Sequence record: KM657822
Direction: 5' to 3' (one strand)
Length of the DNA: 64,000 nt
From: Escherichia phage vB_EcoM-VpaE1
Shown here: one piece after another, positions 17,619 through 40,845 of the stretch
How positions within the stretch are numbered: position 1 is the first letter of the stretch
Layout: every line of letters begins with the position of its first letter
Position numbers and translations under genes: made by a program
Notes under the pieces: model-generated
The model's database searches: none
What the model saw: the letters and a program-made list of their open reading frames with translations, nothing else
Told to the model about the DNA's origin: nothing

Positions 17619-25637
<8,019 letters not shown>

Positions 25638-35512: not shown

Positions 35513-36616
35513 TTACTCATAATCCCTAATAACTAGCCCGACAGGGAACTGTAAAGAACCCTTACGAGTCATCTTCTGGAACTGAACCGTTAAAGGCTTC
35601 CCGATAAACTCTTCAGGATGCTCAGCAAGATACTGTTTCTTCTCATGAGTAGTCTTCCATGAGACATCTACAAAGACGTTAGGAAGAGTCTCTACAACGA
35701 ACTTGCCATGACCACGCTTATCAGTCTTTACACCAGTCACTTTAAACTCTTCAGTGTGCATCTTCTTGTGTTTAATCAAGAAGTATGAACGGTGACAACA
35801 CTCATAGAAGGAGTCTTCAGAGATTGAACGGTACATTGCACCTTCAAACTTAGCTTCAACCCACTTATCGTGAGCTTCATCAAACTCTTCCCAAGAATTT
35901 ACACGACGAGACTTAACAGGAACAACTTTACAGCCGTCTCTAAAGTCATTCAATGGTGAAGTCTCAATAATATCTCTACGTTCAGGCCATGTCTTAGTGC
36001 TATCACAGATGTCATACCAGTAGAACTTAAGAAGATGCCTGTCAGGGTTCTCTTCATTTTTAATCATGGAGACAATATCTTCCAAGTCCCATCCATGAGC
36101 ATAAATCTCACCATCGAAGTGTTTAACTTTTGGGTGAAGTAGCATCATCTTGTTAATATCACCGATTAGCTCACGGGGTATATGATACTCTGTGTTCTCT
36201 CTTGAGTATGCTATGAAGCCTTGAAAAGCTATAGTATCTCGTGTAATCCTACAACGTACACCATCCAGTTTCGGTTGAGCATCAGCAGGGAACTTCAAAT
36301 ACTTTGCATGGCTAACCTTTGCAGCATCATGAGCAAGCTGTACACCTACCTTCTCAGTATTCTGTGCAGATTCTTTTGTGTAAGCATAACCTTTACGGTC
36401 AACTTGCTTTTTATACTTAGCAGCAACTTCAAAGAGAGCTTGCTGTTCAGCGTTACGCTCATTCTTTTTACCGATGTTTTTAGGTTCTGCTGTATACTCT
36501 TCAAACATCATCTTGCCATTTTCTTTACCATAGGTTGTAATAACTTTGTCACCTACAGCAACGCATGACCAGACGTTGAAGGAACCATCTTTATTTTGTT
36601 TGTACAGAATTGTCAT
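35513..36616 (-). CDS. ATP-dependent DNA ligase
   Basis: Motif I KLDGVR, motif III FDGEIYAHG, motif IV EGAMYRS, motif V FLIKHKK. Confidence 0.8.
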   Translation of the reverse strand: MTILYKQNKDGSFNVWSCVAVGDKVITTYGKENGKMMFEEYTAEPKNIGKKNERNAEQQALFEVAAKYKKQVDRKGYAYTKESAQNTEKVGVQLAHDAAKVSHAKYLKFPADAQPKLDGVRCRITRDTIAFQGFIAYSRENTEYHIPRELIGDINKMMLLHPKVKHFDGEIYAHGWDLEDIVSMIKNEENPDRHLLKFYWYDICDSTKTWPERRDIIETSPLNDFRDGCKVVPVKSRRVNSWEEFDEAHDKWVEAKFEGAMYRSISEDSFYECCHRSYFLIKHKKMHTEEFKVTGVKTDKRGHGKFVVETLPNVFVDVSWKTTHEKKQYLAEHPEEFIGKPLTVQFQKMTRKGSLQFPVGLVIRDYE

Positions 36617-37108: not shown

Positions 37109-37665
37109 TTAGTGTACTTCAAGCCAATTCTTACCAACTTTACCAGTACCAGTTACAAGCGTTTCCTCCTTAAGCCCTAAGTTTCTTGATGCCTGACCAT
37201 ACATCCAGTCAATCACTGCTTTAACATCCTGTGTCATCTCTTCTGGGCACTCCCAACTATTCTCATCGTGGTATGCCAAAAGCAATCTAGCACCAATAGC
37301 TGGTTTTCGACCATTCAGCTTTGTAAGACCCTCTTCACAAGTTCTTCTACAAGCGAGGTTGATGGCTTCATTCTGAACCTGACTTTCCGAACCCATGAGC
37401 AGATAATTCAATAGCTTGTGTGGAGATTTACACCACAACCATGCACCAGCAACCTTTACAAAACCACCTTTAGAGATTGCAGCAGTCTTACCAAATACCT
37501 CTTCAAGAGCCTTCTTAGTGGCTTTGAAGTCTGCTTCTAAATTATCTATCAACTTCTTAATTTTAGGGAGGCGTACAAAGTATGTTTGCTTAGTTAAAGC
37601 ACCCTCCTCAGTTGTAGATGCTTTAATCGTCTTAGCAAATTTCTCATCGCCAGCCCCGAACAATA
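37109..37665 (-). CDS. DNA polymerase (family A) exon 2
   Basis: Begins with second half of motif B (LFGAGDEKFAK) and carries motif C (LLAYHDE); no ATG start. Confidence 0.7.
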
Positions 37666-37876
37666 CATCTGGTCAATACACTCGCAAGGTGTACCAGTTC
37701 TCTTATGAACTTCTCCGCATTTCTACGGAGTGTCGGACTATATCACGTAGCAGTGGTGCTACCGTTGCACTTGGGGATGGTCATTAGCTTACCACCCTAC
37801 TCTACTCAGTTCATACGTTAAGTATGCTTTTCGATAGTCTCTGAACGTTTCTCTGTTAGGAATCTCTATAGTTATG

Positions 37877-38113
37877 TTATTTGCTTAGGTAGTCAATTGC
37901 TCTTTGCATATTATCAACGCTATCTGCAAGCAACCCCAAAGCTCTGTTGCAATTGTGGCATAACATACCTCTTACCTTTCCGGTTTTGTGGTCATGGTCA
38001 ACAACAAGCTTAGCCTTGTGTCGTGAACCATTCATGATAAAACCTTCACCGCCACAAATTTGACATTTGTAATCACAGTTGCGGAGTAGAGTTTCGACCT
38101 CTTCTCTTTCCAA
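37877..38113 (-). CDS. intron-encoded HNH endonuclease domain
   Basis: CDYKCQICGG ... DHDHKTGKVRGMLCHNCNRALG HNH motif. Confidence 0.7.
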   Translation of the reverse strand: MEREEVETLLRNCDYKCQICGGEGFIMNGSRHKAKLVVDHDHKTGKVRGMLCHNCNRALGLLADSVDNMQRAIDYLSK

Positions 38114-38337
38114 GCCATATTATGTCCTTTCTCACCGCAATGTGATGAACAATAAACTTGCCTTGCTGTTCTCGGCATGAACACCTCCTCACAGCTAGGA
38201 CATTTCTTAGTAAGAACCCTGTGTTCTGCCCTTCTGTCAAATTTTAACACACAACTTCTGCACCGTTTTTGATTGTATTGGTACGGTTTAAACTCCGTGC
38301 CACACTCAGTGCATAATCTCTCTTCGTAACCTGCCAT
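38032..38337 (-). CDS. intron ORF N-terminal Zn-finger segment (possibly same gene as HNH via frameshift)
   Basis: ATG 38337 preceded by AAGGAGAGAG; Cys-rich (CTECG, CRSC, CPSC, CSSHC); overlaps HNH ORF in another frame. Confidence 0.4.
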   Translation of the reverse strand: MAGYEERLCTECGTEFKPYQYNQKRCRSCVLKFDRRAEHRVLTKKCPSCEEVFMPRTARQVYCSSHCGEKGHNMAWKEKRSKLYSATVITNVKFVAVKVLS

Positions 38338-38445
38338 TATCTCTCTCCTTTGTTTTAGGAGTCCTAACAGAGACTTCGCTGCTGATTACCATATCTTTAC
38401 AGACTTAGGCTTCCAGCAATTCACAACGTTTTACATGCGCCACTG

Positions 38446-40588
38446 ACGCATAAATGCCATTTTTGGCTTTCTTACGACCTTTGCTAATTTCTTGAAGAAG
38501 ATTTGTATCCTGAGTGGCTCGACAGGTCAAGATGTCTTCCTCTTTATTAAGGCTGAAGTAGATGCTATTTAAAGTATGCGCATCAGTTCCTGAGTACACT
38601 ACGTACAAGTCATTTTCCGAATCATAATGCAAATACTTGTCAATCTCTGGGTTTAGATACTGGTCAAAATGTTTGCAATAGTACCTGCCATCCTCTTGTT
38701 TGACGAACTCAACCTCTTCTTTACCCTCTGTTACTGCTTTAGTGAACTCTTTATCACCCATAAAGTTACACAGCAGTACAAGTTGCGCGCTATTCATATC
38801 TGCTGAAACAATATTAGTTCCTTCCTCACAAGTCCAAACCTCCCTCATAGGTGCTCCATAGACAGCAGCACCAGACGGTACGTTTACAATACCATATTGT
38901 GTCATACGTCCAGTTGAAGTACCAAACACCATTGCACCAGCACTAAGGCGACCATCAGGACGAATCTGGTTCAACCAACCTTTTTCATCATCCTTTGAGT
39001 TCTCAATAGTTCTGCGTCGGTGCATCAAAGTATAGTATTTCGCAATCTTCTGTCCAAGCTCACCTTCAATCGTATCATAGGATGATTCGGTAAGTTTTGG
39101 TGAAGTACGGATTAAGCAAGGTTCAAGCAAATCTGTGTACTTCTTAACAGACCAGTTATGCTCAATGTACTGTACACCTTCGTGCTCAACATAACTCAAA
39201 CCACACCGCTCGACCATTTCCTGCCACTTAGGATGCTTTGTAATCATCTTTTTATTGTCTTTGAAACGACAAACTTTGACAGGGCGACCGTCTGAGTCTT
39301 TCTTGTAGTTCCAGTCATCTGGAATCCAACCAACTGATTTCAAGTAGTCTTTAACAACTGCTACCTGAGTCATACGAGAAACTTCAAACTCAATTGGTGT
39401 ATATGGTGCATCAATCAAACCTGTGTAGCGACTTGACTCAAGTCCAAAGTGGTTAACAACGTGGCTGTTATAGTACTTCACAGTTTTGACTGTTTTTACT
39501 GGCTTCCAGTCTTTGCATTTCTTACCAATCTTTGCGTTCAACTCATTGCAAATTGCACGAGCATCCTTCATTGCTACAAAGCCTTCCTTGTACTCTTCAC
39601 CAGTTACAGAGTTGGTTGGTGTATAGCAATTTCTCTTTTCAATGTTAAAAATCTTTGTAGTTGGCTTACCAAATGGCTTGATTTCATATGTCTGCATCTC
39701 ACCGTTACGTACCTGCTGACGATACTTTGTCTTAGGATACTTGGTAATTCTTTTCAGTCCATCTGCATGACCAAATGTTTCAACATACTCATTCCAAGCT
39801 TTTGCAAACTCTTCTCCAGTGACTTTACCTTTGGTCTTAATAGTTGGAGGTAGATGTGGTTCAACCTCTGAAGCAAGCTCATTAGTCAACTTGTCAAGTT
39901 CCTTTACATGGAACTCCATAAGCTCTTTATCAGCTTTCCAACCATTGATAGCTTGTTGGCTCATCCAGAAAGATGTCTCTTTAGCTCGCATGTAAGTTTC
40001 ATAAGTGTCTATACCACACTTCTTAAGCTTGAGATATTCATTATCAAGTGCCCGTTTAGTTTTGGCGTTGATACGGATATCTTCTACAACACGAGTGAAG
40101 ATTTCTGCATTCCACACACCCCAATGTTCAATCTCTGGTTTACGAACACCAACACGAGCACCCCATGCAGCCAAACCATGAGCACCTTTATAGCCCTTTG
40201 GAGTTGGTCTATCCATCCACTGAACACGAGACTGGATAAGAGAATCCTGAAAGAAATTACTCCACGGTTTACACTTTGGATTATCAAAGTTCCATAAATC
40301 AGGTGCAATGTGATTGAAAACCCACCAGTCATAACCGAGACCATTATGGATGCAAAGACGTTTTGCCTTTAACGCAAACTCAATGCCTTCACGTAAGCCA
40401 CCCTTAATGTACTTGGTATACTTGTGACCGAGGATAGGCTCATCTGTAAAGACCCATACAGGCGGCTCTTCATCGTCAGATTTATAGTCTGCGAAAGCCA
40501 TTACGTGCACTTTAGTGAACTCAAGGAGTAAACCATCAGTTTCTGTATCACCAACTAAATGTAAGTTTTTAAAATCTACGTTTTCCAT
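38446..40588 (-). CDS. DNA polymerase (family A) exon 1: 3'-5' exonuclease and polymerase motif A
   Basis: Exo I VGDTETDGL; motif A VSADMNSAQLVLLCNFMG; first half of motif B GRKKAKNGIY; start ATG 40588 behind GAGGGAG. Confidence 0.8.
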
Positions 40589-40845
40589 TTTTACTCCCTC
40601 TAAAATCATTAACCTCATACATTACTGCAAAAAATTATAAAAAGCAAGTTGACAATGCACTTGACAAGGTGTTAATCTTTGCGAAGTGGGTTTTTACTTA
40701 AAAGGTTACTTAACAGTTTAACTATACAGATACTTTAAAACTCTTAAAAGATTATTTAATAGCTTTTAAAAAGCTTTAAAGTATAACGTATAGAATACGT
40801 TAAGATAAAAGATTAAAACTTAATAGTTACTTAAAAGAGGCTTAC

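Follow-up and report, generated by a model that had tools for sequence, protein, structure and literature searches.

[quoted passage not shown] Felix O1 has been reported as intron-free, with a polymerase of 906 aa (PMC3185647). In phage polymerase genes at large, group I introns have been known since 1990, SPO1 being the case cited in PMC11878797. The introns of SPO1, SP82, Bastille and Pf-WMP3 are self-splicing group I introns in family A polymerase genes and encode the His-Me finger endonucleases I-HmuI, I-HmuII, I-BasI and I-PfoP3I (PMC3428280; PMC11878797); they differ from the element described below in their site (E. coli position 674) and in their enzymes, which belong to the classical HNH nicking family and not to the Endo VII-motif type. 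Another example is given by PhiI and W31, whose introns are self-splicing members of subgroup IA2 according to Bonocora and Shub (2004), as cited in PMC3428280, which places them at a different site, E. coli position 881. The intron of Yersinia phage Berlin is the same kind of element as these two, and an intron in the polymerase gene of Pseudomonas phage LUZ24 is attributed to Ceyssens (2008) as cited in PMC6083498.

The DNA analysed here is a 64,000-nt stretch of Escherichia phage vB_EcoM-VpaE1 (record KM657822), hereafter called the window. The 3.7 kb around the intron match 260 phage records, nearly all from Felix O1-like phages (Felixounavirus and relatives, Ounavirinae), with Salmonella phage Sl26 as the best match at 96.8% identity; the phage belongs to Felixounavirus. 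[quoted passage not shown] The element is a near-copy of the one already recognised in the genus: JH2, EC6 and FSL SP-010, which have the endonuclease, and Meda, tootiki and Mushroom, which lack it, share with the window the same gene, insertion point and exon junction. Felixounavirus polymerase introns are 98-100% identical to that of the window in the ribozyme and 80-96% over the whole intron (81-94% for the JH2 and EC6 copies, about 80% for FSL SP-010). Unlike the other copies, that of the window measures 780 nt, has a net deletion of 22 nt and contains a frameshifted endonuclease gene.

Elsewhere in the window, 23 tRNA genes on the plus strand (1080-5914) are consistent with the Felix O1-like group; a 185-aa DUF7338 ORF (4000-4557) is embedded in this cluster, and sub-threshold tRNA-Sec, permuted-tmRNA and Plastid-ycf2 hits within it look like tRNA-derived false positives. 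Downstream of the polymerase, a 367-aa ORF (35513-36616, minus strand) has the KLDGVR motif typical of ATP-dependent DNA ligases and matches the DNA ligase described for Felix O1 (PMC3185647).

Table 1. Features of the interrupted polymerase locus, in window coordinates unless another phage is named.
Feature	Coordinates	Strand	Content and basis
DNA polymerase exon 1	38446..40618	-	Exonuclease domain, motif A, first half of motif B; ORF list, Pfam DNA_pol_A, spliced translation
DNA polymerase exon 2	37109..37665	-	Second half of motif B, motif C HDE, C-terminus; Pfam DNA_pol_A profile positions 218-380
Group I (IA2) intron, 780 nt	37666..38445	-	Boundaries from intron-less alleles; Rfam half-hits; ORF-less alleles above threshold
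P1/P10 region	38435..38451	-	Exon AUGCGU 38451..38446, loop CAGUG 38445..38441, guide GCGCAU 38440..38435; direct reading
P3 5' strand, P4, P5	38380..38428	-	P3 5' strand 38428..38424; P4 38418..38413 with 38385..38380; P5 hairpin 38409..38389, GUAA loop; Rfam alignment (model positions 60-139, 24 bits), pair counts, minimum-energy fold
P6 and P6a, 5' strand	38362..38379	-	Pairs with 37861..37845; 12-bp P6a encloses the ORF region
Shine-Dalgarno AAGGAG and ATG of the endonuclease gene, with upstream CUCCU	38335..38366	-	Direct reading
Endonuclease 5' fragment, 101 aa	38032..38337	-	Cys-rich, zinc-ribbon-like N-terminal part; alignment with BPS15Q2 and VSe11
Endonuclease 3' fragment, 78 aa, TTG start	37877..38113	-	Complete Endo VII-type catalytic domain
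P6a and P6, 3' strand	37845..37861	-	
Catalytic core, 3' half	37736..37839	-	Rfam alignments, pair counts
P7, P7.1, P7.2		-	P7 37839..37834 with 37741..37736; P7.1 37826..37812; P7.2 37797..37774
P3 3' strand, P8		-	P3 3' strand 37767..37763; P8 37762..37747, with a compensatory change
P9, P9.1, P9.2, terminal G		-	P9 37730..37713 (GAAA loop); P9.1 37710..37697; P9.2 37696..37670; terminal G 37666
Extra HNH (AP2-domain) gene of relatives	tootiki 2307-2810; Mushroom 2355-2891; VSe11 2862-3374		Positions in the compared pieces

The boundaries of the intron are fixed by alleles that lack it, since the polymerase genes of SUSP2, wV8 and Erwinia phage Panisse are contiguous exactly at the junction, SUSP2 reading ...TATGCGT/TACTGTTCGG... 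across it, and comparison with these three sequences rules out a shifted exon boundary. The frame of exon 1 ends in ...GRKKAKNGIYA, after which the unspliced reading adds 14 intron codons before a UAA at 38407..38405; the resulting 737-aa ORF (40618..38405) has a family A polymerase signature and ends in ...GRKKAKNGIYASVAHVKRCELLEA followed by this stop. The polymerase frame picks up again at 37665 (UAUUGUUCGGG...), and an ORF at 37663..37109 matches the C-terminal part of the same Pfam DNA_pol_A profile as the 737-aa ORF. When position 38446 is joined to 37665, an ORF of 2730 nt and 909 aa results (...KNGIYA/LLFGAGDEK...), in the same register as in SUSP2, wV8 and Panisse. The spliced mRNA would read ...UAUGCGU/UAUUGUUCGG..., with NGIYALLFGAGDEK as the junction peptide. 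In comparisons with PDB structures, the match to T7 polymerase spans the exon 1/exon 2 junction as a single stretch from motif B to the C-terminus, and motif B of the spliced polymerase aligns ungapped with that of the T7-like polymerase of phage Berlin (RDNAKTFIYGFLYGAG), RKKAKNGIYALLFGAGDEK standing against RDNAKTFIYGFLYGAGAAK at the junction. The first-pass annotation had placed an intron of 780 nt at 37666-38445, with a polymerase frame that stops inside motif B, resumes 780 nt on and regains the spacing of T7 motif B when joined; the intron-less alleles that it proposed for comparison bear out these boundaries to the nucleotide, and the Berlin alignment agrees with the spacing.

It is very improbable that the gene is instead truly split by an inserted endonuclease cassette, each half being translated on its own and the products assembling with no need of RNA splicing. 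Although many GenBank records do annotate two 'DNA polymerase' coding sequences (CDSs) with a gene between them, the cut would run through motif B, and exon 2 has neither an ATG or GTG start nor a Shine-Dalgarno sequence, the only candidate being a TTG that is its second motif B codon. A split gene is also hard to reconcile with the ORF-less alleles, which retain 268 nt of conserved ribozyme encoding nothing, and with boundaries that show the exon-terminal U and intron-terminal G signature and join the exons in frame. As for an intein, a group II intron or some other intervening element, nothing speaks for one beyond the interruption of a conserved motif, and the probability of this is negligible: an intein was rejected because the exon 1 frame meets a stop 14 codons into the insert, and a group II intron because there is neither a reverse transcriptase nor an Rfam group II hit.

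The fold of the intron was drawn by hand as an IA2 structure model of the ORF-excised, 289-nt ribozyme, with 74 pairs. P1 is a helix of 6 bp between the end of exon 1 and the intron guide, with a terminal U·G at the splice site, and the adjoining loop CAGUG may pair with the exon 2 start UAUUG as P10 (5 bp, two of them G·U). P4 and P7, the P/Q/R/S elements, stand in the correct order with the ORF region between Q and R; P2 is absent, and the intron ends in G. The assignment to subgroup IA2 follows from the presence of P7.1 and P7.2 between P7 and the P3 3' strand, here joined by GAGUAGAGUA; this arrangement, with a GUA-containing linker, is the criterion for the subgroup (PMC3428280). The helix P1 with its G-U at the cleavage site, the terminal G and the order of the core elements had all been read correctly in the first-pass annotation, for which the possibility of modelling a group I fold was itself a test.

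All 74 pairs are kept in nine sequence variants, where each of the 645 pair cells is paired and none is broken. Across these variants there are two compensatory pairs (U-A to C-G in P6a, in ORF-less alleles, and C-G to U-A in P8) and four one-sided changes involving G·U, all other substitutions falling in loops or joining regions, and the P5 loop remains of GNRA type where GUAA has become GAGA. Covariation support for the fold is modest, as the ribozyme is near-invariant in the genus and the model was drawn from the same sequences. The pair counts come from a Felix-only alignment together with a helix-by-helix check; a MAFFT alignment with distant introns misaligned those of Berlin, MIF8 and ZQ2 and was set aside. 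In the helix-by-helix check, P3, P6, P7.1, P7.2, P8 and P9 are complementary with different sequences in the introns of MIF8, ZQ2, LPML1 and Berlin, and the P9.1 sequence AGUUCAUAAGAGAAC is identical in the Berlin intron. An unconstrained energy fold of the ORF-excised ribozyme returns the same helices (z=-3.4 against shuffles).

An Rfam scan of the whole window at curated thresholds returns only tRNAs and no intron, and at E<=0.05 over the 64 kb the two halves of the intron also drop out. In narrow searches, the 5' half (38418..38328, P4-P6) matches Intron_gpI (RF00028, curated threshold 50 bits) with 24 bits and E=0.001 in 1.1 kb, and the 3' half (P7-P9) with 12-13 bits; the matches are sub-threshold halves because about 500 nt are inserted in the P6a loop. 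The ORF-less alleles of tootiki and Mushroom (268 and 311 nt) score 61.3 and 62.3 bits over the full model, with E of about 1e-14, and the ribozyme core of the window differs from the 268-nt tootiki allele only inside P6a, at 99.3% identity. The covariance search that had been proposed along with the group I assignment therefore finds only sub-threshold halves in the window sequence itself, and support for the predicted assignment comes by way of near-identical ORF-less alleles, which score above the RF00028 threshold. A search of the 64-kb window with conserved core motifs found no second intron.

Following established group I intron chemistry, the transcribed RNA is predicted to fold into the ribozyme P1-P10, an external guanosine bound in P7 would attack after the exon-terminal U38446 (in the U·G pair of P1), and the freed exon 1 would then attack after the terminal G37666, giving the ligated mRNA for the 909-aa polymerase. 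RNA left unspliced would yield a truncated protein of 737 aa ending at the UAA given above. In the literature searched, no splicing experiment or transcript data were found for any Felix O1-like phage. The presence of the intron in about 95 phage records indicates that it is compatible with an essential gene.

The first-pass annotation had described the ORF in the intron as a single HNH endonuclease gene. An endonuclease gene is indeed present; it consists in the window of two overlapping ORFs, and its family is the Endo VII-motif one and not HNH as named. In Sl26, BPS15Q2, VSe11 and about 36 other records, the P6a loop contains one gene for an intact endonuclease of about 160 aa, the C-terminal half of which is a Pfam Endonuclease_7 domain. 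Near 38126 of the window, 7 nt stand in place of 29, leaving the gene 22 nt shorter than in BPS15Q2, VSe11 and Sl26; this net deletion splits the 160-aa gene into ORFs of 101 and 78 aa in different frames. The 101-aa ORF has weak Pfam matches to NinG and zinc-ribbon families and loses the frame after about residue 72, at the deletion (38126/38125), its last 29 residues being out of frame. The 78-aa ORF matches Pfam Endonuclease_7 (E=1.4e-19) and endonuclease VII families in PHROGs, is 99% identical to the corresponding part of BPS15Q2, and contains the complete motif CxxC ... DHDH ... R ... CxxCN as CQIC, DHDH, VRG and CHNCN. This motif, C-terminal in F-CphI and its relatives, defines the 'DHHRN' homing endonuclease family (Fang et al.), His-Me finger relatives of HNH (PMC6083498), and by sequence the endonuclease is of this Endo VII-motif, DHHRN type. 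F-CphI is free-standing and targets psbA, whereas the predicted Felix-type enzyme is intron-encoded and its gene interrupted in the window.

No single frame runs from the Cys-rich N-terminal part into the nuclease domain in the window copy, which is most likely a pseudogene, with the loss of activity deduced from the frameshift. It is improbable that the intron is as described but its enzyme still active, as a free-standing 78-aa domain, through a programmed frameshift or as two cooperating fragments. Such activity would draw on the whole Endo VII catalytic motif of the 78-aa ORF, its near-identity to intact relatives and an AAGGA upstream of its TTG; this AAGGA is poorly spaced, however, at 11 nt from a weak start, a TAA stands two codons upstream of the TTG in the frame of the nuclease domain, no slippery site for a programmed frameshift is seen in the gene, and the segment lost is the one that links the Cys-rich part to the nuclease domain, leaving an N-terminal fragment with an out-of-frame end. 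A sequencing or assembly artefact, with an intact intron of 802 nt in the real phage, is quite improbable. In its favour, the ORF-bearing copies in the phage collection (about 39, of two sequence types about 80% identical in the ORF) are all 800-806 nt long and the 780-nt form is found in no other record, yet the exchange of 29 nt for 7 different nt in non-repetitive sequence is unlike a typical read error, and degenerate or deleted endonuclease genes are to be expected, the derivatives of 268 and 311 nt showing that deletions are common at this locus.

Upstream of the endonuclease gene, CUCCU can pair with AGGAG of the Shine-Dalgarno sequence, and the resulting hairpin, which would sequester the ribosome site, possibly has a regulatory role. 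Translational control is known for other intron-encoded endonucleases, and the CUCCU/AAGGAG pairing resembles it.

A junction probe finds 268 records in the phage collection, and about 95 of these roughly 268 carry the intron, with the ORF in about 39 and without it in about 56, the latter reduced to 268 or 311 nt. In the other 170 or so records, wV8 and UAB_Phi87 among them, the junction is contiguous. All intron-bearing alleles have the junction TATGCGT/TATTGTTCGG in common; intron-less wV8 shows synonymous differences there (GCA CTG CTG against GCG TTA TTG), with which the exon-terminal U would be lost and P1 and P10 would be weaker. No clear co-conversion gradient was found in the exon flanks over ±470 nt (37196-38915) in comparison with intron-less wV8 and SUSP2: the flanks are uniformly 75-85% identical to these two, and the ribozyme is 98-100% conserved among intron-bearing phages.

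In the textbook cycle, a mobile intron invades a gene, its endonuclease decays, its ORF is lost and finally the intron itself disappears. The spread of allele states seen here is what such a cycle predicts, which would put the window at the stage of endonuclease decay. From the family membership of the intact enzyme and the patchy distribution of the intron among relatives, we infer that the ancestral 160-aa Endo VII-motif enzyme, encoded in the P6a loop, would cut intron-less alleles in co-infection and that repair would copy the intron in. The window intron is most likely immobile because its endonuclease gene is frameshifted, unless the enzyme is provided by a relative in co-infection or the intron is carried along by recombination in its flanks. 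With intact-endonuclease, frameshifted, ORF-less and empty-site alleles in one genus, the locus is convenient for studies of intron gain and decay.

In relatives, an additional gene is seen beside the intron: a free-standing homing endonuclease gene of HNH type (AP2-domain) overlaps or abuts the end of exon 2 in tootiki, Mushroom and VSe11 and is absent from the window and BPS15Q2.

Outside the Felix O1-like phages, the intron in gene 5 of the T7-like phage Berlin (2107-2786 of the compared piece) is like that of the window in interrupting a family A polymerase in motif B, in having its ORF in P6a and in its IA2 architecture without P2 and with the identical P9.1. The Berlin endonuclease is of Endo VII type and 50% identical to the Felix-type enzyme over 116 aa, the latter having an extra N-terminal Cys-rich repeat. 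The two differ in site, the Berlin insertion lying 11 nt upstream (AKTF^IYG as opposed to IYA^LLFG), and the Berlin ribozyme is only about 65% identical to that of the window. A further example is the polymerase intron of LUZ24 (19143-19811; 669 nt), also in motif B, with the exon-terminal U and intron-terminal G of the window intron and an Endo VII-type endonuclease 51% identical; it has inserted within the Y codon of AKTFIY, which places it 6 nt upstream of the site in the window, and the two ribozymes share about 57% identity. The insertions follow one another along motif B, that of Berlin after the second base of the F codon of AKTF, that of LUZ24 five bases later and that of the window six further.

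The ribozyme of the window is more similar (75-78% identity) to introns in RNA polymerase genes of N4-like phages than to those of Berlin (65%) and LUZ24 (57%). These N4-like introns, in Erwinia phage MIF8 (1455-1702) and Escherichia phage vB_EcoP-ZQ2 (460-703, both in the compared pieces), are of subgroup IA2, score 94 and 92 bits and contain the closest relatives of the window ribozyme; they interrupt RNAP2 genes directly after V-H-D(-A) codons, the records annotate each piece as a CDS of its own, and in ZQ2 an HNH_3+AP2 ORF lies downstream of P9. With an endonuclease closest to those of Berlin and LUZ24 and a ribozyme closest to the N4-like introns, the two parts of the element seem to have different histories. 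It is conceivable, though we hold it only as a tentative proposal, that one Endo VII-motif lineage (about 50% pairwise identity) has come to occupy group I introns at three sites spaced over 11 nt of motif B, each in a phage group unrelated to the other two (T7-like Berlin, LUZ24, and Felix O1-like phages), with the nearest relatives of the Felix-type ribozyme in N4-like RNA polymerase genes, so that endonuclease and ribozyme would have been reassorted and the insertion point shifted. If this is true, Felixounavirus would offer, in its intact, frameshifted, ORF-less and intron-less alleles, a natural series in which the assembly and decay of mobile introns can be followed.

A second IA2 intron (57 bits) is seen in an Ounavirinae record named 'Listeria phage LPML1' (1393-2172 of the compared piece), where it splits the large terminase gene, with Terminase_6N halves flanking it on both sides. 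Its ORF, of 160 aa and Endo VII type, follows the P3 3' strand and apparently lies in P8, and the product is only 34% identical to the polymerase-intron enzyme; a terminase intron of this type is absent from the window.

For annotation, the polymerase should be entered as one joined CDS of 909 aa, with both small ORFs assigned to a single endonuclease gene that is disrupted. In many database entries for Felix O1-like genomes, several biocontrol candidates among them, two 'polymerase' genes are listed or the parts carry wrong labels. In the EC6 record (JX560968), the intron endonuclease is annotated as 'DNA polymerase I' and the exons as 'hypothetical protein'; in several records exon 2 appears as a 'DNA polymerase' of its own that starts at the internal TTG, and the L27 record annotates a reverse-strand ORF inside the ribozyme.
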